A DNA stretch of 64,000 nucleotides from contig NC_043000.1 in the NCBI RefSeq assembly GCF_006345805.1, forward strand, positions 133,672,001 through 133,736,000, written 5' to 3'. The notes under the pieces were generated by a model. It did not search any database. It was not told where the DNA came from and was given only the letters and a program-made list of their open reading frames with translations. The position numbers and the translations under genes were made by a program. The stretch comes from Octopus sinensis. Its lineage: Eukaryota. This document shows, piece after piece, positions 2,832-64,000 of this stretch; position 1 is the stretch's first letter; every line of letters starts with the position of its first letter.

Positions 2832-3395
2832 CATAGGGTTTAGACAAAATAATGGAAACCCCTTAAAATTTCAAACAAATTTATTTTGATATGAGGTAGG
2901 ACCGCCTACAAAGTTTGAATTGTTTCCAAAGGAATTTTTGTCCATTCTTCAGCTAAAACTGTCTCCAGTTCTTGTAGTGATGATTGTGGAAGATATCGAT
3001 TTCTTACTTGTTTTTCTAAATTGCACCATAAATATTCAATAATATTGAGATCTGGGGACTGAGGTGGCCAGATAAGTTGTTCGACTTCACTAGAATGTTC
3101 TTCGTGACATTCAGTAACAACTTTAGCTGTGTGAATTGGTGCATTTTCATACTGAAAGATTGCGTTCCGGAAATAGTTCCGCAACCATAGGAGGAATTCT
3201 GCCATGGAGGGAAACTATTGGGCTGGCGGATTTCCAAGATATATCCCTCCAGATCATCACGTCCTCCTCCATGTTTAACAGTTGGAAGAAGGTAATCTGG
3301 GTCAAATGCTTCTTTTGGCTGTCTCCACACGCATACTCGGCCGGTGGTCGGAAATAAAGTAAAGTATGTCTCGTCCGAGAAAATAACATCTATCT
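2832..3395 (-). mobile_element. Tc1-family transposon remnant (DD34E transposase pseudogene plus one TIR)
   Basis: Frameshifted VIFSDET...GRVCVWRQPKEAFDP..LLPTVKHGGG / IFQYENAPIH / WPPQSPDLNIIEYLW. Tc1-like TIR GGGTTTAGACAAAATAATGGAAACCC near 2836. Confidence 0.9.
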
Positions 3396-3494
3396 GTGTG
3401 TGTCTGTGTGTGTGTGTCTTAAATAAAATGCGACAACAAAGCCAAGACAGTGAAATTTCTAGGACATTTATAAGGAGAAAAGTAGTCTTACAGC

Positions 3495-3553
<59 letters not shown>

Positions 3554-5979
3554 CTCATTCCAAGTTTGACTTCTCTGCATGACACTCTGGACCATTACCA
3601 CTTCTACCGTAACCTCAAGTAGACAGAACCCTCGAGAGTGAAATTGGGAAGGAAGAAACTGTGATGAAGCTCGTCTGGTTGACTGCTTCTCGTGAAGTTT
3701 ATTGAATTGACTCTTGACAGCACTCTTGACTCCGAAAGTAGTATATACCGGTTCGTCCAAACAAACCAACTATTTTAACGAGAAAGAATCAGACAACGTG
3801 ATGTAGACTTGAACAAACACAACGCTCTCCGAAGAATGCATTGAATAACATGTATAAGTTAATATTAACGTATACGAAGACATGTTTCTTTCTTATTAGA
3901 CCTCCCCGGCTAACCGTAAACTTCACCGTACTTGCTGAAGCATTGAAAAAGAACTACTATGGAAATGTACGAGAATATATACACTCTGCGTCGTCATAGA
4001 AAACTAGAAATAGTTAAAGATTAAATTATTCTTAGACAGAACACAAATAAAGATACAATAGTTTGAATAAGCACTAACGTATATAATATAGAAAGGTTGA
4101 AAAGACTGAGGTATGTAACAGTATGGGTGATACAAAGATGGATGTACCAGGTGAGCTAAAATATGTATGGGAAAGAACAGAGGTCATTATAATTAACAAT
4201 ATATGAGATATATCTATCAGAAGATTTACAAATATTTGCCAAATTTCTATTTAATAAATGGGAGTGGAGCAAGTCCTTCATTTTATCTCTTGTCTTTTCT
4301 CTAATTCCTATTTGGGTCTATATTCACGGTGCTCTTTATTCTCCGCAAATATATTCTAAGAACAACTCTATGATTTATACATTTGGTTTTCCCAAACAAT
4401 CTAACCTAACACATATATATGAGTACATATACATACATATTAGTATGTACATATACGTATCTCTAAACACACAGATCTATGAAGCATACCCGGATGCTTA
4501 CATTTATATATATATATGTATGATAATCTCCATAGTCCGACAGAGACGGTTCTGTAATTTCTTACTAAACAATCTGCACAAATAATTTGTCTAAAATGTT
4601 GTACATTAGCTCACTTCTTCCATCAAATTGACTTTGCCTGAACAGGTGTACGGTGTACCGCAAGCCGGGTGTCGAAGTGACCGCAGAGTAACGTGAGATG
4701 AAGAGTCTTGCTCAAGAACACAATGCACTAAACGGTTCAAAACTTGAAATCACGATCCTGCGTTCATGAGTCTAACACCCTAACCACATTTATACATATA
4801 ACATATATACTTACTTGATGCTTAAATCCCAACCTTTCTGTATTAAAAGGCAGCTCTTATTGGTATTGGTGCAAAATGTGAAAGATAAAAACCAGAAGAA
4901 CATACATACATACATACATACAGGTAGTCAGGCATAAAACAAAATATTTATACAGTTATTGAGGTAATTTGACCAGTGGATATGAACATTTTCAAAATCA
5001 ATGAGTTAAGGTTTCGAAGTGCATGACTTCTCTCCCCAATAAACGAAAAATGAAGTTTGCAAGAATCTTTACTCAACACAACGATCTTTTCGACGCTGCT
5101 TGCATCTCTTCCTTACAGGTGGGATGTTGCACAGCTAGTTGTGTTGCATCCATCTTTGCAGGATGCATCTCGTTTTAAATAATATACTTCGTTACATATA
5201 CTGAGTTTCGCTTGGCATGTTGTGGTAGTCTGTAAGATATTGACTATGAACCGTGGAATTCCTGACGTAGATCCAGTGACAATTATATCATAACTGTGGA
5301 TGACATCAGGTAGCCTACACGGTCTAAGTGCTTTAATCGGCATGCTACTAGACATATACCCAAAGTTCAAATAATTACTTGTGTGTGTATGTGTGTGAAT
5401 GTGTAAGTGTGTGTGTGTGTATGTGTGTGTAGTCAAAAGACCAAGGATACCTACCTGAAAAGTTTATGCCAATACGAGAAGCACCACGAGTCACCAATCT
5501 GGCATCTCTTTTGTTCGTTATATTATTATCAGGCATAAGCAAAACTATTCAACCGATCACAGGAGATATGCAGACGACAGTAAAATAATGCTGCCGATCA
5601 AGGCAAACATTCATATTTATGCCTGCCTACGAAGCCTAAACACTATTATATTACTGTATGAATGAAAATAATATCTTGTTCATTCCCCCACATCATTCAA
5701 TGTCATCTGTTACGGAAGGAAGATATTCAACGACAAGAAGTTTTACTTTACCCAAACAAAGAAACAATTCAAACCCTGGACTATGGCGGCAGATTCATGT
5801 CACTCTAAACATATTAAATAGACTGTCAGCATGCCGGCGTCTTAGTAGCTAGGTATCAAAAACATTTACTATGAGAGGCCAGACATTGATATTGACATTA
5901 TGGAAATATCCTGTTTTGAACAGGTTGGCTGACTAAGACTTGCCAAGTAACACGAAAAATTTCAAAGTGTATTCATAGA

Positions 5980-7404
5980 TATTAGGTTGATTCACATGAA
6001 ATGTCGCATTTCTAATTACTTGTTATTGCAGTTATTTAAAAACTCAATTATGTCTACATTGCATTAGTCATGACTCTTTTTCCCAACAATATTGATATAC
6101 AAAATTCGTACCCACAGACCTTATAAAAATGATAACAGCTAGACTATGTTGAATGAGTGCAAACTGGGTCACTCTGCCGCAGGAGCTCTACAGAATATCA
6201 AGCGGGCCTTTGGTAATGGTTTTGTTGACAAAAGAACTGTAGAAAAATGGTTCCAAAGCTCTCGTTCAGATGATAGCCTTGAAAATAAACCAAGGGGTAG
6301 GCGAAATCAGTTATTCGGCATGATGGATTAAATGGTTTCGTTGAACAAAATCCGAGAACAAAGGTTCGAAAACTCTTTGTCAACAGCAGGAGAACAAGAA
6401 AGTTATTAGATGCAGAAGAGTCACCTAAACACTACCCAAACCCACCATTGCACCCTAAAAAGTTAGTGGTCACTGTATGGTGGTCTGAGAAGGGAGTTAT
6501 TCATTAATCATTTTTGCAAAAAGGAAAAATGGTAACAGCAACATCGTATTGCCAGGAAATTGATTGTGTGCACGAGAATTTGAAAAAGAAGCAACTCAGA
6601 CTAGTGAATAGAGATGGCCCAATTTTGCTCCACGACAATTCATTTCCTCACACTCCTCAAGGTAGGGTACAAAAGTTGCAAAGCCTGAATTACGAGATTT
6701 TGCAACATCCTCCCTATTCCCCTGATATCTCTCCTACTAATCATCACTTATTTAAGCATTTTGAGCTTTTCATAAGCAAGAAAACATTCTTAAATAGAGA
6801 AGAAGTAATTGAAGCATTCGGAGAGTTTATCACAGCAAAATATGAATTTTTTTTTAAAGATGGAATATATGACATAGAGAAACGTTGGGTAAACATCATA
6901 CATAAACTTGGATCATACATTGAATAAATAAATCAGTTCTCTAACACTTCTGAAGCATTTTATTGTTACCTTTCAAATACGACATTTCATGTTTTATTGC
7001 TTATGAAAAGCTCAAAATGCTTAAATAAGTGATGATGAGTAGGCGAGATATCAGGGAAATAGGGAGGATGTTGCAAAATCTTATAATTCAGGCTTTGTAA
7101 CATTTGGACCATAGCTTGAGGAGTGTGAGGACGTGCAATGTCGTGGAGCAAAATTGGGCTATCCCTATTCACTAGTTTCGGTTGCTTCTTTTAAATAGAG
7201 AAGAGGTAATTGAAGCATTCGGACAGTTTATCACAAAAGATGAATCGTTTTTTAAAGATGGAATATTTGACAGAGAGAAACATTGGGTAAACGTCATAAA
7301 TAAACATGGATCATATTTTGATTAAATAAATCAGTTCTCTAACACTTTTGAAGCATTTTACTATTACCTTTCAAATACGACATTTCATGTGAAACAACGT
7401 AATA
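5980..7404 (+). mobile_element. Mariner-family transposon remnant with rearranged 3' end
   Basis: TIRs TATTAGGTTGATTCACATGAAATGTCG (5980) and CGACATTTCATGTGAAACAACGTAATA (to 7404). HTH fragment (ORF 6146..6331), LHPKKLVVTVWWS, LLHDN and HPPYSPDISP motifs; internal deletion. Confidence 0.92.
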
Positions 7405-8489
7405 AATAAAATGACGAAAACCTTTGTTATTGGAGATATCTCTGTATATTATCCCGAAGAGAACGTCAAATATATGTAGAATGTGTGGGGCTCTAGAAAA
7501 CCTTATTCTAAACTTTCGTATTCAAGAGTACAAGAGTGAAAGAAAAATAATCACGAAGAATGGGAGCAACTGTGGAACTCCCTGGTATTTCCTTTTTCTA
7601 AACGCTCGCATCAGAAGCCCGTACAGGAACTTTTTGGCATTTAAAGGTGCATAAATGTAGAGGTAACACATCCAAAAAAAAGACATAAAACCTCACCAAA
7701 ATTTCTCCTGAAACGTTGAAAATATATTTTGCTGCGTTTATCCATAATATAGATTATCCATCTGCAAAAAGAAAAAATTTCCTATGAAACTTGTGTGTCC
7801 GTGTTTGTCGCCCCAACATCGCTTGACAACCGATGCTGGTGTGTTTACGTCCCTGTAACTTAGCGGTTCAGCAAAATAGATCGATAGAATAAGTACTAGG
7901 CTTACAAAGAATAAGTCCCGGGATCGATTTGCTCGACTAAAGGCGGTGCTCCAGCATGGCCACAGTCAAATGATTGAAACAAGTAAAAGAGTAAAAAGAG
8001 AGTAAGAGTAAGAAGAGTACACATGAATCGATCCGTTGATCCGCCAGTTTCGTATTCGGAAAAACCCGACGAAAAACATTTGAAACTTAGTTATAGACTG
8101 AGACGAATATAAAACAGATGAACAAGATTCAATCCCGAAGGCAATACTCCAGCATGGCCCCGACTGTGGTGGCTAAAACAAAGTAAAGAATGCAAAGAAC
8201 ATGTCACAAGAATATTACACCTAAAGTGTTTTCCTTCACTTAACGAAAACAGATTCATTCATCGCTAAGTAATTCACGTTGTAAACGCCTTATATTACTC
8301 TATTAGATTTATGCCACAGACTGCAAAGCAACGAGGGTGTTGCATTTTAAACACTCAAGATTGCTGAAGCAGTAAACTACCTCCTGCCTTGCCACCTATT
8401 TACAATTATGTGGATCGGACCATTTCAGTTTATCATAAGCCATCAGCATAAACAGTTTTTTCTGTGACTTCATTAAAATTACAATCCAC

Positions 8490-14404: not shown

Positions 14405-14595
14405 GTAGTAGTAATAATAACATAGAGAAATAGCTTAGGAATGAGAACCCAGGTTCGAAATTTCCCCAAGACACATGAAGAAGGCTGGAGGGTATATCAG
14501 CCGAAACGTTGTGTTAATAACAAACAAGATGAGGACAAATATTCGTCGAATGTAAATAGTGTAAATAATTCCTCATCTCTTAAATATAGAACTGT
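14184..14595 (+). mobile_element. tRNA-headed SINE with hammerhead-like tail plus inverted partial copy
   Basis: A-box TGGCGTAGTGG (14279), B-box GAGTTCGATTCC (14322), (AAT)n spacer, then tail with hammerhead topology. 14184-14268 is the reverse complement of head and tail pieces. Confidence 0.75.
14471..14514 (+). ncRNA. Minimal type I hammerhead ribozyme motif (C3 mutated in this copy)
   Basis: ACAC-aTGAAGA-A-GGCTG(10-nt loop)CAGCC-GAAAC-GTT-GTGT. The inverted sibling copy at 14191-14197 retains CTGAAGA. Confidence 0.65.
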
Positions 14596-17469: not shown

Positions 17470-18732
17470 AACTGATGTTTAGCTCTCTAAAGTCCAGCAC
17501 CGGTCTGACTTGCCCCTTTCGTCGGCTGCACCACCGCCATCAGAGGTAGCACTCCGCTCACCACCTCCTCCTTCCACGGGACAAGGACTCCTTCCTCGAT
17601 CCATCTCTCTACCTCGTCTTCGCACTCGACCCTGGCGTGACATTTCAGAGTACGCTGGTAGCAGCTTACCCTGTTCTTCAGCATCGGGGGCTCGTCTTTC
17701 CATCGCCACTCTATCGTCCACCACTGACCATCGAACCACGCTTGAAAATCCTTGTCCTGAATGGTGTAAGCAGCACAGTCCCTCGCGGAGCTCTGCTCTC
17801 TCTGGCGATCCTGACTCACAGCGCACGACGCCCCACGCTTCTGAACGTGACCTCATCTGCAATATTGACACCACCGAGGCAGTTGATGGCGTCCATCTCT
17901 ATCACCACATCAACCTCGACTTTCACGCATTCGATCACAATTACCTGCAGCCTTATCGTCGCGCCTCGCACCGCTATCTCTACATTGCTGCTGCCCTTGC
18001 ATTGGATTTCGCTGCCGTCGACCGCCCCGACGATACTTGCCCCATTCCATTTCTTCGTCACCATTAGAGTCACGATGGTGGTCATGCAACCCGTATCCAC
18101 GAGGGCCTTGAACGTCTTCTCCTCGGCCTCGACATCAATTACGGGCAGCGTCTCCAAAAGCGCCTCTACTCGTTTGCGGGGAAATTTCGAGAGGCAGCAA
18201 CTTCCCCACGGTCGTTTCCCTGGTCGCAATCACGGGCGGTGTGCCCTGTCTGCCTGCATCGATAGCAGACGGGCCCCGGTTGCGTACACTCCTTCGCCAT
18301 GTGTGACCCCTGACATTTAAAACACCTGATTTTACGCATCCAGAATACTACATAGCCCTCACCATTAAAGGGCCTGATAACGTCGCTGACGATCTTAATT
18401 TTAGCTGCCATCGTGGTGACGTCTTATGTGGAGTGTCGAAATAGCTTGTGGTGAATGCGGGAGATTAGAAGTAAGACACCTACCTTCTCTTCGTCGACGC
18501 AGACCTCCCCGGTGATAACATACCCTTCCACGCGGCCCGACCCGAAACGCTAAAAATAGCAGCTGTTGTTTCTCACCTTGTCGAAGCGCTCACACGTCCA
18601 GCACTCTCGGTTACCCCGATCGAAGAAAGGCCCAATCGTCCCCTGCCTGCGCGCGCGTCACCTACGCGCCCTTCCTCTTCTAGTCAGCTCCCAAGTTCCG
18701 GTCAGCTCCCCAGCTGCTGACGTCATCCTACA
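17470..18732 (-). mobile_element. Gypsy/Ty3-type LTR retrotransposon 5' fragment (LTR, deleted gag, protease, start of RT)
   Basis: GC-rich. Two CCHC knuckles (CFKCQGSHMAKEC, CYRCRQTGHTARDC), aspartic protease ALVDTGC, RT start (LPLMAVVQ...VRPVLDFREL); frameshifted. Putative LTR TGTAG...CCACA at 18732-18427. Confidence 0.85.
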
Positions 18733-26450: not shown

Positions 26451-29273
26451 TATCTCTTTATTACGATTATAGAAAATCAATACATAGAAGGGACGAATAC
26501 AGGACATACATACAAAAACATTTAAGAGATTCGATTAAAAGTTTCGTTTGGATTCGTTATAAAGTAATAGTTTTTGCATAACTAGTATAACAAACACTTG
26601 TAGATGACTTTTGTGGTTTTACTGGAGCTTTTACACCCCGGCAATTGATGAGGCCCTGCAGCTTCCACTTCCTCTCTCTCCTCCATGGTCAAGCTGGGTT
26701 TCTCACACCCACCTTTCTTTCCACTTCCTTCCATCTTTTCTCATACACTCCCCGCGGCAAGGTCCTCCTCTCCAGTCCCATCTTGCTTCTCAGATGATAT
26801 CTGAAGTAGGTGAGCAAGCCGGGCCCGGAGATAAAGGACCCTGTCGCGGCTCCTTCCATTCTCGTTCTCCACATGCATTCCTTTACCACTGCAACCGTGC
26901 AGTGAAAACATGCCTCACCTTCCTTCGAGAGTCCAGTTGGCGGTATCATCTTAATCATAGACTCAGCCGACAGCTGTACTCGTCCCAGATGCGATAACAC
27001 GTGTTCTGCGTAACTTATCAAGTCGTTCAACTTCCGACAGTGAACAAAAGCGTGCTGAACGGTTTCATCGTCCGACCCGCATCTTGGACATGTCGGTGGC
27101 ACTGGAACTCCGTGCCGCGATAACTTCTCGCGAACAGGTAAAGCATTCCTGTAGCACTGCCAGGCCAGGGATCTTTGGAAATTATCCAAATACCCCGACC
27201 TGAACGTTTTCTTAAACAGATTGGCAAGCTGGTCTTCATCAAACCCCAGAGCCCCTCCTAGGACGTCATCGTTTTTACCTTCTACCAGCCCTCTATAAAA
27301 TACCGAGGTGGTATTTCCGCAGCCGGCCTTGCCCGTCCTGTGGATCAGCGTGAGTGCCTGTCGGCACTCCTTTTGCCATGGAGTTAGATTCCATCTTCTG
27401 ATGTAACCGGGTTTAAAATTAACTAAGGAGGCCGGTCTCGGGAAAAATCCCTCTGCCAGCGGACTCCACACCTTATCACCTTCCAGGTGGTGCCAGAGAT
27501 GTCTTAGTCTCAACGCATGTCTGCGCATCATCAACCAAGGCATCCCTAACCCACCCTTTAACGGTTCTTGACAGCACACGGAGCGTCTCACAAGTGGCTT
27601 TCCTCCTTTCCACAAAAAGCGAAAGAGGACTCGTTCCAACTTGTTAAGCCATGAGTCGGGGCAAGGGACGACGGTCAGGCGATAGGTGATTACAGATGCA
27701 ATAAACATCTGCACCACCTCCGCCCTTCCTTTCAAGGACAGAGACCTTCCGGACCAGGTCCGTACTATGGCCTCCACCTTGCCCGTCACCTCGCTCCAGT
27801 TCTTCTCCGTTTGGGAGTCCGGTCCAAACCAAACTCCCAGCAACTTAACAGGGCCATCCGTCCAGTGTCCCACAACACTGGACGATATCGGCTTGTTCCT
27901 CCAGGTGCCGAGGCGCAAGCCGACCGATTTGTCCCTGTTAACCTTTGCTCCTGCCACCGCCTCGTATCCTCTGATAGCCTCCTCTACACAAGGTAGTTGG
28001 GCCTCTTTGGACACGATGAGGGTGATGTCATCCGCATAGGCAGTGACCGACCTCCCACCTCCGATTTCATCTGGGTTACTCCCCAGCCTTTCCAACCTTC
28101 GCAGTAGTGGCTCAAGAGCCAATACGTACAAAAGTGGTGACAAGGGGCACCCCTGACGTACTGAACACTTGATCGAAAACGGTTCCGTTAGGTAACCGTT
28201 TATCTGGACGGTGGACTTGATGCCGCTGTACATAGCGGAGATCCACCCGCGGAATTCGGGACCCAGTCCGGTCGCTTCGAGGACCGTCGCCAGGTACCCA
28301 TGGTCTACCCTATCGAAGGCTTTACTTTGGTCCAAGTGGACCGTTACCCCGCCTTTGCCGGTTACTTTACCCACCCTATCTAGGGTGTAGCGTATAAGGT
28401 GAAGGTTGTCCTGGATCGACCTGCCTGGAATTGCACATGTCTGTGCTCTCCCTACAAGTTTCTCCACGACAACCGTCAACCTTTTTGCTAACACCTTGGC
28501 CAAAATCTTTAACTCTACATTAAGTAGAGTTATGGGCCTGTAGTTACTAATTATATCCCCCTTGCTCGGGTCTTTCTGGATTAGCGTCACCACTCCCCGG
28601 CTTACAGAACTGGGAATTCTCCCATTCTGCTGCCAGTTCGTGTAGACGCCTGCCAGTATTCCCCCGAACAAGTCCGGCATACTTTGGTAAAACTCGTAGG
28701 GCAGACCATCCAGCCCCGGCGACTTCTCCCCGGCGCACCCGGCCAGCACTTCCTTTATTTCCGCGGGAGTGATCGCTCCCTCACAGCACTCCGCCTCACG
28801 CCCCGCGAGCCGCGGCCCGCCGGCCAGGAAGTCCCTTAAGGCACTCCCCCGATCCAGCGGGCCACCACCCCCGAACACGCGCGCGAAATGCTGGTGAAGA
28901 AACTTTTGCATCTCCTCCTGTCCATAGATCTTTTGTCCCTGTTCGTCAGTCAAAGATTTTATTGAGGCTCTGTTGCCTCTCTTACTCTCCACACGACGGG
29001 CCCATCCGGCCACGTTAACACCTTCTCGTTTCCCGGCGCGCAGCTTAGCTCTGACTCTGCAACCTTCGTGTTTGGAGTTAAGGTGACGGTACAATACCGT
29101 CCTTGCCGCCAGTACTCCGGATGCAGAGCCAGCTTCCATTGCCTCGTCTAGATTCTTAACTAAATCGCCCTCTAGACTAGCCCTATCTATCCTTAGCTGA
29201 TTGCTAAATCTAACGGACTCTAAACGAATGGCTCTTTTGAGGGCGTGCCACCATCTATTGTTAATGATGGTGC
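26451..29273 (-). mobile_element. L1/Tx1-type non-LTR retrotransposon, 5'-truncated, copy 1
   Basis: GC-rich island with an uninterrupted ORF2 (KSPGLDG, NYRPITLLN, LDQSKAFDRV, VRQGCPLSP, YADD, C-terminal CPRC...H...C knuckle). The frame stays open to the truncation (...NRWWHALK...). No endonuclease domain. AATAAA at the 3' end. Bounded by ATTAGAATGGAATGTT. Confidence 0.95.
26689..29139 (-). CDS. LINE ORF2 reverse transcriptase plus zinc knuckle (endonuclease missing), 816 aa
   Basis: ORF track; RT motifs intact with no stops or frameshifts. The ATG is internal to the original ORF2. Confidence 0.9.
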   Translation of the reverse strand: MEAGSASGVLAARTVLYRHLNSKHEGCRVRAKLRAGKREGVNVAGWARRVESKRGNRASIKSLTDEQGQKIYGQEEMQKFLHQHFARVFGGGGPLDRGSALRDFLAGGPRLAGREAECCEGAITPAEIKEVLAGCAGEKSPGLDGLPYEFYQSMPDLFGGILAGVYTNWQQNGRIPSSVSRGVVTLIQKDPSKGDIISNYRPITLLNVELKILAKVLAKRLTVVVEKLVGRAQTCAIPGRSIQDNLHLIRYTLDRVGKVTGKGGVTVHLDQSKAFDRVDHGYLATVLEATGLGPEFRGWISAMYSGIKSTVQINGYLTEPFSIKCSVRQGCPLSPLLYVLALEPLLRRLERLGSNPDEIGGGRSVTAYADDITLIVSKEAQLPCVEEAIRGYEAVAGAKVNRDKSVGLRLGTWRNKPISSSVVGHWTDGPVKLLGVWFGPDSQTEKNWSEVTGKVEAIVRTWSGRSLSLKGRAEVVQMFIASVITYRLTVVPCPDSWLNKLERVLFRFLWKGGKPLVRRSVCCQEPLKGGLGMPWLMMRRHALRLRHLWHHLEGDKVWSPLAEGFFPRPASLVNFKPGYIRRWNLTPWQKECRQALTLIHRTGKAGCGNTTSVFYRGLVEGKNDDVLGGALGFDEDQLANLFKKTFRSGYLDNFQRSLAWQCYRNALPVREKLSRHGVPVPPTCPRCGSDDETVQHAFVHCRKLNDLISYAEHVLSHLGRVQLSAESMIKMIPPTGLSKEGEACFHCTVAVVKECMWRTRMEGAATGSFISGPGLLTYFRYHLRSKMGLERRTLPRGVYEKRWKEVERKVGVRNPA

Positions 29274-29289
29274 ATTAGAATGGAATGTT

Positions 29290-32112
29290 TATCTCTTTAT
29301 TACGATTATAGAAAATCAATACATAGAAGGGACGAATACAGGACATACATACAAAAACATTTAAGAGATTCGATTAAAAGTTTCGTTTGGATTCGTTATA
29401 AAGTAATAGTTTTTGCATAACTAGTATAACAAACACTTGTAGATGACTTTTGTGGTTTTACTGGAGCTTTTACACCCCGGCAATTGATGAGGCCCTGCAG
29501 CTTCCACTTCCTCTCTCTCCTCCATGGTCAAGCTGGGTTTCTCACACCCACCTTTCTTTCCACTTCCTTCCATCTTTTCTCATACACTCCCCGCGGCAAG
29601 GTCCTCCTCTCCAGTCCCATCTTGCTTCTCAGATGATATCTGAAGTAGGTGAGCAAGCCGGGCCCGGAGATAAAGGACCCTGTCGCGGCTCCTTCCATTC
29701 TCGTTCTCCACATGCATTCCTTTACCACTGCAACCGTGCAGTGAAAACATGCCTCACCTTCCTTCGAGAGTCCAGTTGGCGGTATCATCTTAATCATAGA
29801 CTCAGCCGACAGCTGTACTCGTCCCAGATGCGATAACACGTGTTCTGCGTAACTTATCAAGTCGTTCAACTTCCGACAGTGAACAAAAGCGTGCTGAACG
29901 GTTTCATCGTCCGACCCGCATCTTGGACATGTCGGTGGCACTGGAACTCCGTGCCGCGATAACTTCTCGCGAACAGGTAAAGCATTCCTGTAGCACTGCC
30001 AGGCCAGGGATCTTTGGAAATTATCCAAATACCCCGACCTGAACGTTTTCTTAAACAGATTGGCAAGCTGGTCTTCATCAAACCCCAGAGCCCCTCCTAG
30101 GACGTCATCGTTTTTACCTTCTACCAGCCCTCTATAAAATACCGAGGTGGTATTTCCGCAGCCGGCCTTGCCCGTCCTGTGGATCAGCGTGAGTGCCTGT
30201 CGGCACTCCTTTTGCCATGGAGTTAGATTCCATCTTCTGATGTAACCGGGTTTAAAATTAACTAAGGAGGCCGGTCTCGGGAAAAATCCCTCTGCCAGCG
30301 GACTCCACACCTTATCACCTTCCAGGTGGTGCCAGAGATGTCTTAGTCTCAACGCATGTCTGCGCATCATCAACCAAGGCATCCCTAACCCACCCTTTAA
30401 CGGTTCTTGACAGCACACGGAGCGTCTCACAAGTGGCTTTCCTCCTTTCCACAAAAAGCGAAAGAGGACTCGTTCCAACTTGTTAAGCCATGAGTCGGGG
30501 CAAGGGACGACGGTCAGGCGATAGGTGATTACAGATGCAATAAACATCTGCACCACCTCCGCCCTTCCTTTCAAGGACAGAGACCTTCCGGACCAGGTCC
30601 GTACTATGGCCTCCACCTTGCCCGTCACCTCGCTCCAGTTCTTCTCCGTTTGGGAGTCCGGTCCAAACCAAACTCCCAGCAACTTAACAGGGCCATCCGT
30701 CCAGTGTCCCACAACACTGGACGATATCGGCTTGTTCCTCCAGGTGCCGAGGCGCAAGCCGACCGATTTGTCCCTGTTAACCTTTGCTCCTGCCACCGCC
30801 TCGTATCCTCTGATAGCCTCCTCTACACAAGGTAGTTGGGCCTCTTTGGACACGATGAGGGTGATGTCATCCGCATAGGCAGTGACCGACCTCCCACCTC
30901 CGATTTCATCTGGGTTACTCCCCAGCCTTTCCAACCTTCGCAGTAGTGGCTCAAGAGCCAATACGTACAAAAGTGGTGACAAGGGGCACCCCTGACGTAC
31001 TGAACACTTGATCGAAAACGGTTCCGTTAGGTAACCGTTTATCTGGACGGTGGACTTGATGCCGCTGTACATAGCGGAGATCCACCCGCGGAATTCGGGA
31101 CCCAGTCCGGTCGCTTCGAGGACCGTCGCCAGGTACCCATGGTCTACCCTATCGAAGGCTTTACTTTGGTCCAAGTGGACCGTTACCCCGCCTTTGCCGG
31201 TTACTTTACCCACCCTATCTAGGGTGTAGCGTATAAGGTGAAGGTTGTCCTGGATCGACCTGCCTGGAATTGCACATGTCTGTGCTCTCCCTACAAGTTT
31301 CTCCACGACAACCGTCAACCTTTTTGCTAACACCTTGGCCAAAATCTTTAACTCTACATTAAGTAGAGTTATGGGCCTGTAGTTACTAATTATATCCCCC
31401 TTGCTCGGGTCTTTCTGGATTAGCGTCACCACTCCCCGGCTTACAGAACTGGGAATTCTCCCATTCTGCTGCCAGTTCGTGTAGACGCCTGCCAGTATTC
31501 CCCCGAACAAGTCCGGCATACTTTGGTAAAACTCGTAGGGCAGACCATCCAGCCCCGGCGACTTCTCCCCGGCGCACCCGGCCAGCACTTCCTTTATTTC
31601 CGCGGGAGTGATCGCTCCCTCACAGCACTCCGCCTCACGCCCCGCGAGCCGCGGCCCGCCGGCCAGGAAGTCCCTTAAGGCACTCCCCCGATCCAGCGGG
31701 CCACCACCCCCGAACACGCGCGCGAAATGCTGGTGAAGAAACTTTTGCATCTCCTCCTGTCCATAGATCTTTTGTCCCTGTTCGTCAGTCAAAGATTTTA
31801 TTGAGGCTCTGTTGCCTCTCTTACTCTCCACACGACGGGCCCATCCGGCCACGTTAACACCTTCTCGTTTCCCGGCGCGCAGCTTAGCTCTGACTCTGCA
31901 ACCTTCGTGTTTGGAGTTAAGGTGACGGTACAATACCGTCCTTGCCGCCAGTACTCCGGATGCAGAGCCAGCTTCCATTGCCTCGTCTAGATTCTTAACT
32001 AAATCGCCCTCTAGACTAGCCCTATCTATCCTTAGCTGATTGCTAAATCTAACGGACTCTAAACGAATGGCTCTTTTGAGGGCGTGCCACCATCTATTGT
32101 TAATGATGGTGC
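29290..32112 (-). mobile_element. L1/Tx1-type non-LTR retrotransposon, copy 2 (exact tandem duplicate, offset 2839)
   Basis: All ORF-track entries repeat identically at +2839 and the 5' truncation point is the same. The TSD sequence occurs at 26435-26450, 29274-29289 and 32113-32128. Confidence 0.95.
29528..31978 (-). CDS. LINE ORF2 reverse transcriptase plus zinc knuckle, copy 2
   Basis: Identical translation to 26689..29139. Confidence 0.9.
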   Translation of the reverse strand: MEAGSASGVLAARTVLYRHLNSKHEGCRVRAKLRAGKREGVNVAGWARRVESKRGNRASIKSLTDEQGQKIYGQEEMQKFLHQHFARVFGGGGPLDRGSALRDFLAGGPRLAGREAECCEGAITPAEIKEVLAGCAGEKSPGLDGLPYEFYQSMPDLFGGILAGVYTNWQQNGRIPSSVSRGVVTLIQKDPSKGDIISNYRPITLLNVELKILAKVLAKRLTVVVEKLVGRAQTCAIPGRSIQDNLHLIRYTLDRVGKVTGKGGVTVHLDQSKAFDRVDHGYLATVLEATGLGPEFRGWISAMYSGIKSTVQINGYLTEPFSIKCSVRQGCPLSPLLYVLALEPLLRRLERLGSNPDEIGGGRSVTAYADDITLIVSKEAQLPCVEEAIRGYEAVAGAKVNRDKSVGLRLGTWRNKPISSSVVGHWTDGPVKLLGVWFGPDSQTEKNWSEVTGKVEAIVRTWSGRSLSLKGRAEVVQMFIASVITYRLTVVPCPDSWLNKLERVLFRFLWKGGKPLVRRSVCCQEPLKGGLGMPWLMMRRHALRLRHLWHHLEGDKVWSPLAEGFFPRPASLVNFKPGYIRRWNLTPWQKECRQALTLIHRTGKAGCGNTTSVFYRGLVEGKNDDVLGGALGFDEDQLANLFKKTFRSGYLDNFQRSLAWQCYRNALPVREKLSRHGVPVPPTCPRCGSDDETVQHAFVHCRKLNDLISYAEHVLSHLGRVQLSAESMIKMIPPTGLSKEGEACFHCTVAVVKECMWRTRMEGAATGSFISGPGLLTYFRYHLRSKMGLERRTLPRGVYEKRWKEVERKVGVRNPA

Positions 32113-33087
32113 ATTAGAATGGAATGTTGCTCTCAACTTCATTAACAACGTGAAATGACTTCAAGCTAAAATTGGAATCATATCGCAAATCTCAGCTTAC
32201 TTCTTGTGCTCTGACTTCCAACAATGATATAATTATTGACTGAAATATGTGAGAACTACATATTTCAGGAGGAGAGACGCCGAAATTTCGAGAAGTAGTT
32301 GAAATGAGAGTCCAAAATGGAGGAAAGTTCAGCCAGACAGGAAAAAACTGGGGTAACCACGTGAGCGCATGTAATATATAGTTCAAATTTAAAGAAAACA
32401 AAAGACGCAGACAGGTGTAGGAACAGCAAGCAGGTGTTTAACGATCGGGAAGAATGGAAAAGTCTTTTGATTACTTATAAAAAGAGGTGGGTGACACAAT
32501 CTCTCACTTTAACTCTTTTGTATATGTAGGACCATAAAGTTATCAAGAGTTAATCCTTCCATACAAATATATAAAACTGGTGTTTAATTTGTTTCCACAA
32601 ATCTTCTTTTCATCCTAACATCTACTTTTAACAGCGCTTACAGTGATGCAATATGAAATTAAGTTTCTTCCTCAGAAATTTATCCAACAACCGTCGGCTT
32701 ATTTAATGCCGTAACCCAGCTATTTTACACATTTTCCGATTGATCAGTTCGTATCTATCTTTTATTGTTAACTTACCAATAATCAATTTGTTGTGGCCAA
32801 TCACTGAAGAAAGACTTTGAAGCTAACAGTCGAACGAAATATTTATTGCTTTAGATTAGTTTCAAAAACATTTTTTTCTAAACAAGATGCCGGGTGTGTT
32901 GTCGCTAGAATCAACCCAAATGCATAGTATTAGAACCTATTTTATCGATCCTGATTGACCACTGTACAACTTGAACTTAATCACAAAAGGAACACCAGAA
33001 TTGATTTATTCTTGCATTCTGCGGCTTCTGTGAAGTCACAGAAATGTTGACTGCATGAAATAAGTTTTGTAAAGGGAAGGAGGTGGA

Positions 33088-34780: not shown

Positions 34781-35035
34781 TATTAATAGTTATCGACATA
34801 CTAATATGGCAGTCTAAATATAAGACTAAAGCTGTCGCTTATTAGCTCAAAGAGGCCACCGCCTCTAGCTAGCTATATGACACACGAACCTGCGTCCATT
34901 ACATTCGAAGGTTGTAATGGACGCAGGTTCGTGTGTCATATAGCTAGCTAGAGGCGGTGGCCTCTTGGAGGTAATCAGCGACAGCTTTAGTCTTATATTT
35001 AGACTGCCATATTAGTATGGCGATAACTATTAATA
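34781..35035. mobile_element. Fold-back palindromic MITE (~123-bp arms, 9-nt loop)
   Basis: Near-perfect inverted repeat centred on 34904-34912, with TA-rich ends. Confidence 0.85.
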
Positions 35036-36635
35036 AATTTTTAATAAATATTAATAAATTTTCTTAATGTAAATAAAATTTTAGTAGAACCCATATTAGT
35101 TCTATTAAAGCTTCCCATAGGTGACCTACAAGAAAAGTAACATTCAGCTCATCTCTGCTGCCCAGGTTACAATTATGTATTAAAAATCATTCTAACAGCT
35201 AGTGTATGTGCTCTCAAGTGGATGACAGCAACAATCACTGCTAGGTGCGCTGGTCTAAAGTCTTCCTGCCTCGCCCTTCCAAATACATCTGCTTTCTAAA
35301 CCGTTCTCCGGATTCCACCAACTACCACCACCACCGCCAGTTCTCCCGACTACATCTTTTCTTACATCGAGCACCTGAAGTCATTGGCCTTTATTACTTA
35401 ATGCTCACAGCTCTTCTTAACTGCTGCCGACGCGCAAACCCAATCTTTTGCAATCCTTGACTCTTTTCATCAGTTTCGCCTTGTAGACTCATCCCGACTA
35501 ACACACGGTCTCCAAAGTCTCTTGATCTCTTTCTCTCACACCCATATCCATCTTTAAATAAGGTAAAATCACCTCTGTACTGTTAAGTCGACTGATACCG
35601 CTTATACCCACACACAACACAATGCACTTCCCCTCCCAAACTCTATGGCCCTTCAAACAGTAGAAACACTCCTGGCTCTACACTACTTTCTCTAGCAGTG
35701 CACATGCTTTACGACTACTAAGATCATCTTCTTAGGCATGCCACTCCACATCCCACACATAACCAAATCACCATCATCATTGTTCGACCGTGGTCGAGAC
35801 TTTCATAGTCTTTCCAAATGGCTAATAATGTGTGCGCGCGCCACTACTACACACATTGGAAAGCATTGTACAACCAAGTACTAAAGAAGATCTTTCCTCC
35901 TCCATGAAACAAAGCTGTTCCCGCTGGACGTCAACCCAGTATTTCTAAGCTACGGACCCAGTGATTTATTGTAAGGTTATCTCCCTAGATAGATTGCCTT
36001 CACTACGGCTAAGGAGCCCTTTCTACCCCATGACCAAAACTCATAACTTTATATTCCCGAAGTAGTTGACTAATGACTGCACCACAGCAGTACATGGAAA
36101 ATGCATTAACTTTAATGCTTGGAGAATTTCCCCCAGCTTTACAAACTGGACGGCATTTACCCACCATCAGAATTTCATTGTAAAAAATTACCACTGGGAA
36201 CGTGATAGCTACCCTACGTACACCCACCTAGTTCTCTCGCCTCCCACACGGAAGATAATCTTGCCAGTTCCTTGTAAAAGGATCTCCCCCATTTTATTGA
36301 ACCCTCCTTTCTTCCGCCACTCAATGATATTTCTTTAAGTTGTACTTCCACAGTGAAAATCTCCACATTTGCTGTTCGTTTTGCATCCAAAATCGCACTG
36401 AATTCACTGGACAAATTCTCATAAACTATCCTACTATACTCCATTGTGGAAAAGACACAGCATTTTCCATTACGAGTGACTTGAGCTATTTCTAATACAT
36501 AGAAAGAAAATGCTTACTGAATTTTGGTGAAACTATATAAAGTAGAGAAATTTGTTAGATTTTATTTCTTTATATTACGGAGATGTACTCGCATAGCAAG
36601 TGACTTGATCTGAGATCGTGTGCTGAAACGAAAAC

Positions 36636-36902
36636 AATTGCAGCGTGGAAGGTGTTTGTAAGCCATTTAAGAAACACACAAAAGCCGTTCGATTCACTTC
36701 AACATTTAAGTTTAATTTGTCAAAATATTTTCGTCGCTAAAATCTGCGACCTGTTCACTGACAGCACGGATTTTTGTCAATGAACAAATCGCGGATTTTA
36801 GCGACAAAAATATTTTGACAAATTAAACTTAAATGTTGAAGTGAATCGAACGGCTTTTGTGTGTTTTTTAAATGGCTTACAAACAGCTTCCACGCTGCAA
36901 TT
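36636..36902. repeat. Inverted repeat (~128-bp arms) with hammerhead-like motifs at its centre; probably Penelope-derived
   Basis: AATTGCAGCGTGGAAG...TGACA is mirrored by TGTCA...CTTCCACGCTGCAATT with an 11-nt spacer. Confidence 0.85.
36718..36763 (-). ncRNA. Minimal hammerhead ribozyme motif, G3:C8 core variant
   Basis: Minus strand TGTCA-GTGAACA-G-GTCGC(AGATTTTA)GCGAC-GAAAATATTT-TGACA, with perfect stems I and II and a palindromic stem III. Confidence 0.6.
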
Positions 36903-37485
36903 ATTTCTTTATAGTGATAGGTAAACTAGATTCTAAAGGTTCACAATTTTTTAAAAGTAGTGTTGTGCAACATGAGAAAACCAATGACGAAGGGGAGGAA
37001 AACGAGAATATGAATCCAACTGAACACGATTCAAACCCATTCTCCCTTGTTGATGCTTTAATGCAAATACCGATATATTATTATTAGTTTATGAAGATAC
37101 ATATGCGTCAAGATTAGTTTTAAAAAGCTTTTTAAGTGACTTTATAGGTGATTATAGTTACACATACTTGATTTTATACCAGTAATTACATTTCTATGTT
37201 CACTGTATGGATTTGCAAAACATTACGTAAAGAATCTAAAGCCATATATAGAAACTAATGTAGCTTTTAGCTTCCAAACTTCTTTTTTATTTATTACTCA
37301 TATTTCATTGAACACACATAAAGATGTAGAATTATAATACATGATGGTTATTATTATCCTATCCTAAATATGTCAGGTAAGTGAATACCCATTATCGTAG
37401 TGTTATCACTTCACGACATTAACGATATGCAAGGCAGGTCAGTCTGGCCTAACCTATCCTTCTCCAAGCTATACTCATAAAGAGT

Positions 37486-38318: not shown

Positions 38319-38637
38319 TCCATATATACACACATACGTATATTGGTACTAGTATCGTAGACTGGTCCCGGTTTGCGCAGACGCAGGCAGTCGATCCTAC
38401 GAGCTGCCTGGCGCATGTACGATATATACTTGTATCGATATATACAATATATACAAGTATACAAGTATATATTGTATATATCGATACAAGTATATATCGT
38501 GCATGCGCCAGTCAGCTCGTATGATCGACTGCCTACGTCTGGCTAGCACGGACGCGCGTCTGCGCGTGTGTACGAACCGGGACCAGTCTACGCTACTAGT
38601 ACCCGTATATTCATATACATATGTGTGTATATATGGA
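38319..38637. mobile_element. Fold-back MITE-like inverted repeat within a degenerate minisatellite
   Basis: GTACTAGTATCGTAGACTGGTCCCGGTT... mirrored by ...AACCGGGACCAGTCTACGCTACTAGTAC; centre near 38455. Confidence 0.8.
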
Positions 38638-63439: not shown

Positions 63440-64000
63440 AAACTAGTGACAGACACCCATCTAAAAGAACGCACTAATATACCAATAAGAAACCTGATGG
63501 AAATGTTGACCTTCCGTGTAGAAATGACCTAGTTCAGTATGGACACTGATATATATCGACAAGTAGAGGGTTTAGCTATGGGTTCGCTATTATCACCAAT
63601 ACTAGCCAAAATATACGTGGAATACTTTGAAAATTTGGCTTTAGGATCAACACCACTAAAACCAACCCTATGGATGCGATATGTTGATGACACCTTTATT
63701 CTCTGGCCCCACCAGGAAGATGTCCAAGTACTGTTAGATCATGTGAACTCAATAAAGCCATCCATACAGTTCACAATGGAAAAGGAAAAAGACAATCAAC
63801 TAGCATTCCTGGACGTATTAATAACACGCACCAAGTATGGATTCAGGACATCCGTATACCGCAAGCCGACCTTCACTGGACGATGCCTCAACTTAAATTA
63901 CCACCATCCATACAGTGTAAAGAGAGAGATTGCTCAGTGCCTAAAATATCGAGCAAAGAATATAAGAAATGATCAAGCTAAGTAACAATCTATTAAGTAA
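63440..64000 (+). mobile_element. Penelope-like element reverse transcriptase fragment
   Basis: ORF 63539..63985: YRQVEGLAMGSLLSPILA, WMRYVDDTF, IQFTMEKE..LAFLDV, SVYRKPT. In-frame stop upstream, so a pseudogene. Confidence 0.9.

Follow-up and report, generated by a model that had tools for sequence, protein, structure and literature searches.

Minimal hammerhead ribozymes occur in the pLTRs of metazoan Penelope-like elements, where they generally cut poorly in vitro (Cervera and de la Pena 2014, PMC4209133). As that study describes them, they combine a palindromic stem III with a short stem I, have one extra nucleotide (H in the consensus) between positions 9 and 10.1, carry a G10.1-C11.1 pair, and are found as motif pairs on opposite strands. 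Positions 3 and 8 pair in a tertiary interaction within the active hammerhead core (PMC3884650), and a covariant form of this pair, U3-A8, is already represented among the minimal motifs of PMC4209133: of the 56 representatives in its Fig. S3, 53 have C3-G8, two U3-A8 and one U3/G8, and none G3:C8. The descriptors of that study fixed the core. Covariation at 3:8, likewise as U3-A8, is described for natural core variants by Perreault et al. (2011, PMC3088659), and G3-C8 does not figure among the variants in the accessible text of that survey. An engineered 3:8 swap partly rescues hammerhead cutting (review PMC8495972). Our literature search, whose coverage of the work on Penelope hammerhead variants was incomplete, returned G3:C8 only as a laboratory variant.

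Two described groups of elements are close to the one considered here. In the PAc / Poseidon element of Anolis (Frangieh et al. 2024, PMC11167929) the hammerhead lies near the ORF start and overlaps the ATG, its cutting needs protein, and an engineered C3G/G8C double mutant partly restores cutting. Reverse transcription of the Anolis element starts at two sites in the ORF, the tail being the stretch between the two resulting 3′ ends, and its targets are AT-rich. Elements of the Neptune/Nematis type encode an RT, a CX2-5CxxC linker and a GIY-YIG endonuclease with CCHH, and are found as partial tandems and inverted 5′-truncated copies, with a tail of 30-40 bp at one end and (TA)n targets (Craig et al. 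2021, bioRxiv 10.1101/2021.04.23.441226).

Here we analyze a 64-kb stretch of Octopus sinensis DNA (the window) in which one arm of an inverted repeat carries a hammerhead motif with G3 and C8. Like the minimal motifs of PMC4209133, the octopus motif is located in a pLTR and shows all of the structural traits listed above; it differs in that its extra nucleotide is G, outside their consensus, and in that its stem III palindrome of 6 nt is longer than in most of them. With the Anolis element it shares the position near the ORF start, a tail delimited by two 3′ ends within the ORF, and the AT-rich targets. In contrast to the engineered Anolis swap, however, the octopus swap is natural and fixed; the whole octopus motif precedes the ATG, with the predicted cut 56 nt before it; and the element has a tail of ~57 nt, a zinc-finger linker and a place in another clade. 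All traits given for the Neptune/Nematis type recur in the octopus element, except that its tail is longer.

A hammerhead motif with G3 and C8

A first, sequence-only reading of the window had claimed a hammerhead in the left arm of the repeat, with perfect stems I and II and the core GUGAACA. Read on the minus strand, positions 36763-36718 give TGTCA GTGAACA G GTCGC AGATTTTA GCGAC GAA AATATT T TGACA. The parts of this motif and of its counterpart in the right arm are as follows.

36718..36763, minus strand: minimal type I hammerhead motif of the left arm (from sequence, fold and descriptor scan)
36758 (G3), 36753 (C8) and 36751 (extra G), minus strand: core positions of the left-arm motif
36750-36746 / 36737-36733, minus strand: stem II, 5 bp, closed by G10.1-C11.1
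36729-36724, minus strand: stem III, a 6-nt palindrome, all A-U
between 36723 and 36722, minus strand: cut after U17, as predicted from the motif
36775..36820, plus strand: decayed hammerhead copy of the right arm, with G-to-A at positions 3, 9a, 10.1 and 12

Stems I (5 bp) and II are perfect and belong to the minimum-energy fold, which bears out the earlier claim; the folding energy itself is ordinary (z -1.47). Besides stem I and stem II with its G10.1-C11.1 pair, the palindromic stem III, A15.1-U16.1 and H17 expected of a minimal type I hammerhead are present. The literal CUGANGA core is absent, the core being GUGAACA. When any base was allowed at positions 3 and 8, the descriptor matched the window twice, at the left-arm motif and at a weak A3/G8 candidate at 14475, and gave no match in 30 composition-matched resamplings.

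The right arm had been said to hold a decayed copy, and it does: four G-to-A changes, at 36780 (position 3), 36787 (9a), 36788 (10.1) and 36806 (12), affect core or core-adjacent positions. All four are G-to-A on the sense strand, one of them at a CpG, and the same adjacent GG-to-AA change is found in an arm of another locus, L133. Possible causes are a hot spot or the deamination of cDNA in its single-stranded form.

It had also been predicted that searches for CUGANGA would miss the motif. This holds, by construction, for a descriptor with a fixed core. An Rfam search of the window with E up to 5 likewise gave no hammerhead match, but the swap is not the cause, because Rfam also gave no match at five loci of C3:G8 relatives.

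Anatomy of the insertion

The palindrome consists of two arms, 36632-36763 and 36775-36906, of 132 nt each, which are 94% complementary and separated by a gap of 11 nt, in keeping with the inverted repeat first noticed in the window. The insert as a whole extends beyond that repeat, from 36575 to 36901, since the left arm continues as a tail to 36575. Its features are listed here.

36562..36574, plus strand: target-site duplication, left copy, 13 nt, identical to 36901-36913
36575..36763, minus strand: left, tailed arm, a 5′-truncated piece of a Penelope-like pLTR that extends from stem I as far as the distal 3′ end (~+1 to +189)
36575..36633, minus strand: tail of ~57 nt on the left arm only, made up of the ORF stretch that separates the two preferred 3′ ends (from 3′-end clusters and the pair survey)
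36664..36666, minus strand: start codon of the element ORF (ORF fragment only), matching the place of L064:3657, which opens a long ORF
36762..36763, no strand: inversion junction, a 2-nt microhomology common to both arms (the left arm aligns to 36763, the right from 36762)
36764..36774, plus strand: the 11-nt spacer, which corresponds to -11 to -1 of the element, precedes stem I in family copies and belongs to the right arm
36762..36901, plus strand: right, short arm, a 5′-truncated pLTR fragment to the proximal 3′ end (-13 to ~+127), without tail
36901..36913, plus strand: target-site duplication, right copy, its first base common to the element end

Aligned to the full copy L064, the left arm is 97% identical across 190 nt and the right arm 93% identical across 141 nt. 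Because alignment of the right arm with the full element already begins at 36762, the 11 nt between the arms are element sequence. The earlier statement that both arms begin at stem I is therefore correct for their complementarity, which starts there, and incorrect for the right arm, whose own upstream sequence occupies 36764-36774. Within the 64-kb window we found these two end fragments and no other part of the same element. A single insertion, in which two 5′-truncated Penelope-like ends lie head to head, accounts for the palindrome, and this architecture is ordinary for Penelope. Any RNA that runs through the copy is predicted to fold into a hairpin of ~130 bp (-206.8 kcal/mol), and since its arms would pair together, ribozyme action of this dead fragment is unlikely.

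The parent Penelope-like element

A 35-nt motif pattern with positions 3, 7 and 8 free has 1,471 exact matches in the genome searched (2.7 Gb), which a protein labelled Octopus vulgaris matches at 99%, and a 34-nt anchor downstream of the motif has 3,022. In longer copies a GIY-YIG domain lies upstream in the same orientation. The copy L064 is complete, running from pLTR through ORF to pLTR, with a motif in each pLTR and a unit of 4,361 nt. Its first motif, at 3560, is followed by the ATG at 3657, 97 nt after the start of stem I, by the RT, zinc-finger linker and endonuclease, which extend to 6868, and by the second motif at 7921; the pLTRs result from a partial tandem seen as a direct repeat, 3055-3689 / 7392-8050. 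The ORF comprises ~1,070 codons with one frameshift, and a further copy, L066, has an open stretch of 1,042 aa.

The endonuclease domain, C-terminal to the RT, matches PF01541 (GIY-YIG) with an E value of 4.6e-5. RT motifs are recognizable in the translated ORF; Pfam RVT_1 gave no match to the protein of this family and a weak one (E 0.004) to that of its sister family. The translations also contain the linker CQSNCAVC (CxxxCxxC) and a C..C..H..H pattern, both read by eye. By its domain content and layout, the parent is an endonuclease-bearing (EN+), C-terminal-endonuclease Penelope-like element, of Neptune/Nematis type by description, the tree of elements holding no named Neptune or Nematis references. 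The Penelope origin suspected from the window copy, and the link to an ORF, are thus supported by the presence of the motif in both pLTRs of an element with RT and GIY-YIG domains.

DNA contigs of four organisms contain the G3:C8 family. Assembled contigs for which an RNA origin was guessed cover the motif and the tail, ends and cutting not being visible in such contigs. A stretch of the annotated octopus protein P0109, a dynein regulatory complex subunit 6-like model, is 68% identical to the RT region of the element and is likely, on this identity, to be a retroelement piece inside a gene model.

Positions 3 and 8 in the family and its sister

Among the matches listed (100 of the 1,471 to the pattern with positions 3, 7 and 8 free), 97 have G3:C8. 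A second sample, of 119 arms, was chosen by the downstream anchor and hence blind to the core; 31 of these arms were truncated or shifted and could not be scored at 3:8, and G3:C8 was present in 85 of the 88 others. G3:C8 is thus family-wide. For the genome as a whole we counted matches in one shared stem II context, each with a reversed-pattern control. G3:C8 yielded 6,104 matches (control 8) and C3:G8 4,478 (control 16), compared with 498 for G3 with a base other than C8 (control 39), 260 for C3 with a base other than G8 (control 31) and 737 for A or T at position 3 (control 121). G:C or C:G thus occupies 3:8 in 10,582 of 12,077 matches, which are copies and not independent events; very few independent changes stand behind these thousands, and G3:C8 perhaps arose once.

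An independent test came from a sister family, which was found through its protein and not through the motif. It is placed as sister in a quick tree (SH-aLRT 100), its N-terminus is 42% identical to that of the G3:C8 family, and it ends at the same two sites by homology. C3:G8 occupies the corresponding core positions in 36 of its 37 scored arms; its stem II shows a two-sided G-C to A-U change, and stem I is changed as well. On these aligned copies, G3:C8 is the family state, and since the sister has C3:G8 at the homologous place, the swap is compensatory relative to it, as had been claimed from the single copy in the window. By parsimony, C3:G8 is likely to be ancestral, and the swap would have arisen in the G3:C8 lineage.

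Across 109 arms and 46 nt, variants at a frequency of at least 10%, which are those of older subfamilies, are confined to four sites in loop II and one in stem I, where a G-U pair results, and the other core positions (U4, G5, A6, A9, G12, A13, A14) differ in 0-7% of arms. In 14 representatives 88.5% of cells pair, with two-sided changes at all five pairs of stem I; for at least 10 of the 14, the selecting patterns had already set stem II and 3:8, which leaves stems I and III as the only fair tests. G8 seemed frequent among the G3 matches without C8. A G3/G8 intermediate subfamily was considered and rejected in favour of independent decay, since the 21 arms concerned share no diagnostic site against 42 others; such sites were sought in the aligned core region, and the low-p columns, few in number, are those of the ragged tail.

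Possible activity of the motif

The best explanation, in which we have moderate confidence, is that the locus is a single head-to-head Penelope insertion and that the family-wide G3:C8 motif likely still cuts slowly, either as a dimer or aided by protein. In favour of cutting are the place of the 3:8 contact in the active core and the partial rescue by the engineered swap, also in the Anolis Penelope hammerhead. Counting against it are C9 in the young sister family, the lack of an excess of 5′ ends at the predicted cut, and the weak, all-A-U stem III: the dimer modelled through it, at -22.0 kcal/mol, is no more stable than two monomers at -12.0 kcal/mol each, -24.0 kcal/mol together, and an alternative dimer fold is lower, at -27.1 kcal/mol. 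We lean slightly towards the more specific proposal that this would be a natural hammerhead working with C at the general-acid position 8, fixed through several subfamilies of a successful lineage with thousands of copies, and that these copies come from uncut RNA.

It is also conceivable, though in our estimation rather unlikely, that the motif no longer cuts and that its fold is kept for protein binding, translation control or an internal promoter, the change at 3:8 merely preserving shape or having drifted to fixation. Such a loss of cutting would fit the presumed origin of the copies from uncut RNA (see below), the weakness of stem III and the C9 of the sister family. It would also agree with the Anolis hammerhead, which is dispensable for insertion in vitro and at whose cut site, according to the same report, no RNA reads began or ended (PMC11167929), and with the internal promoter that Penelope has within its transcribed region (PMC2377424). 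However, positions 3 and 8 make their tertiary contact as part of the active core (PMC3884650), and a Watson-Crick pair is kept there in three forms, as selection on an active fold predicts.

Ends, pairs and targets of the copies

Ends were mapped for the 119 arms around the first 100 listed of the 3,022 anchor matches, all of which are on one contig; a 5′ end could be called for 117 arms. Self-complementary sequence at -20 to -8 makes these calls imprecise by some bases. The largest group of 5′ ends, 49 of 117 arms or 33 of 81 insertion events, falls at -23 to -11, that is, 11-23 nt upstream of stem I. Nine more arms end at -10 to -4, and 27 reach past -41, some of these being microsatellite alignment artefacts. 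The 3′ ends of the 119 arms form two clusters, at ~+130 and ~+185, inside the ORF start.

The sequence-only reading had suggested that the hammerhead defines the boundary of the element. That stem I or the cut creates the 5′ boundary is now very improbable. Complementarity in the window copy does start at stem I, the 5′ ends of six of the 117 arms lie no more than 3 nt from stem I, and those of six others near the predicted cut (+37 to +47); yet the latter are no excess, and the two arms at exactly +42 belong to inverted pairs in which stem I supplies the microhomology. Against such a role stand the main cluster of 5′ ends at -23 to -11, the solo copies flanked by target duplications, which start at -11, -18, -21 and -21 (four clean cases; seven hits in 46 rows), and the full elements, which run through the motif. 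The end map largely refutes this reading, with 3′ ends at two ORF-start sites and 5′ ends 11-23 nt upstream of the motif.

Each of the 36 head-to-head pairs among the 119 arms consists of one short and one tailed arm. Targets are (TA)n in 30 of 48 insert rows, one of the 48 being a mis-anchored duplicate, and target duplications measure 9-14 nt in 15 of 18 non-microsatellite rows. The copies hence display the traits of EN+ Penelope-like elements: partial tandems, inverted 5′-truncated copies, a tail at one end, variable target duplications, and AT-rich or microsatellite targets. That the palindrome is a self-standing unit, a MITE-like hairpin or a retrozyme that moves as such, is scarcely credible: although short foldback copies are common, as the 36 pairs attest, the palindrome centre varies between copies, arm length varies between tens of bases and kilobases, in some cases taking in RT and endonuclease sequence, arm ends inside the ORF start are asymmetric, and duplications vary instead of having a fixed length. 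The variable junctions, unequal arm ends and variable duplications rule out a MITE or foldback element; a non-LTR retrozyme, defined by non-coding head-to-tail tandem monomers with a hammerhead in each (bioRxiv 10.64898/2026.07.22.740005), is ruled out because the arms are inverted ends of a coding element.

For the head-to-head Penelope insertion we propose the following course. Judging solely from the DNA 5′ ends, the RNA would start ~18 nt upstream of the motif. At an AT-rich or (TA)n target, the RT-endonuclease would cut the two strands ~12 nt apart, as the target duplications suggest, and reverse transcription would be primed once at each of the two fixed ORF-start sites, for which the 3′ ends and the Anolis element argue. 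The two cDNAs may then be joined 5′ to 5′ via microhomology; such joining would give one short and one tailed arm, an asymmetry that is itself observed. Inserted copies would derive from uncut RNA, in which case the ribozyme would not set the boundary, and its likely job would be the slow processing of tandem or read-through transcripts.

Further core variants and other features of the window

G3:C8 is also present in older, more distant relatives whose loops and stem III palindromes differ (L326:294-341, L327:294-342, L328:294-342 and L261:1494-1541); the swap would accordingly predate the present family. Among 15 metagenome loci, two contain a motif, one with C3:G8 and one with U3:A8. In the octopus genome, U3:A8 in the same stem II context gave 56 matches compared with 29 in the reversed control; these matches, mostly decayed members of C3:G8 families together with one small family, lend U3:A8 weak support. 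Hammerhead-like motifs with U3:A8 were seen in two small repeat families (L223:1494-1538 / L199 / L222; L100:4258-4301).

At position 9, C replaces A in 37 of 37 arms of the young sister family; an apparently older subfamily keeps A9, and a metagenome relative with U3:A8 has C9 (loci L187:6864-6911 and L276:2490-2537). As these alignments read, C9 is a second recurring core variant, and the core in this clade is not strictly conserved.

The window holds several other elements. Two LINE-type RT ORFs of 861 aa (RVT_1 + zf-RVT) with identical translations lie in tandem on the minus strand at 26689-29274 and 29528-32113, 2,839 nt apart, which represents either a very recent duplication or an assembly artefact. 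An RT fragment at 63533-63985 on the plus strand was considered as part of the hammerhead element and rejected (24% identity over 110 aa); it looks like a different Penelope-type element, with motifs that we take to resemble the Poseidon type. Two more long foldback palindromes, at ~34800-35020 and ~38330-38600, are unrelated to the G3:C8 family and gave no hammerhead match in the descriptor scan. Fragments of an LTR-retroelement-like protease region, with a weak RVP match, and of Tc1/mariner-like transposases, with weak or no Pfam match, are located at 17487-18229 (minus strand), 6508-6927 (plus strand) and 3016-3594 (minus strand).

Discussion

Judged by its sequence conservation and by the provisional standard of the literature surveyed, the natural G3:C8 hammerhead core is probably both genuine and unreported. 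If so, it would be a third Watson-Crick form of the 3:8 pair in natural hammerheads, next to the C-G and U-A forms already described, and searches with a fixed core would undercount hammerheads by thousands in a single genome. The family would then offer a natural test case for how well the core tolerates the swap and for the purpose of Penelope hammerheads. On the latter question the end map has a bearing, in that copies start upstream of the motif and not at the cut, and the use of both priming sites once in each head-to-head pair constrains the integration mechanism. The matched sister families, one with G3:C8 and others with C3:G8 and either A9 or C9, provide material for a comparison of cleavage.
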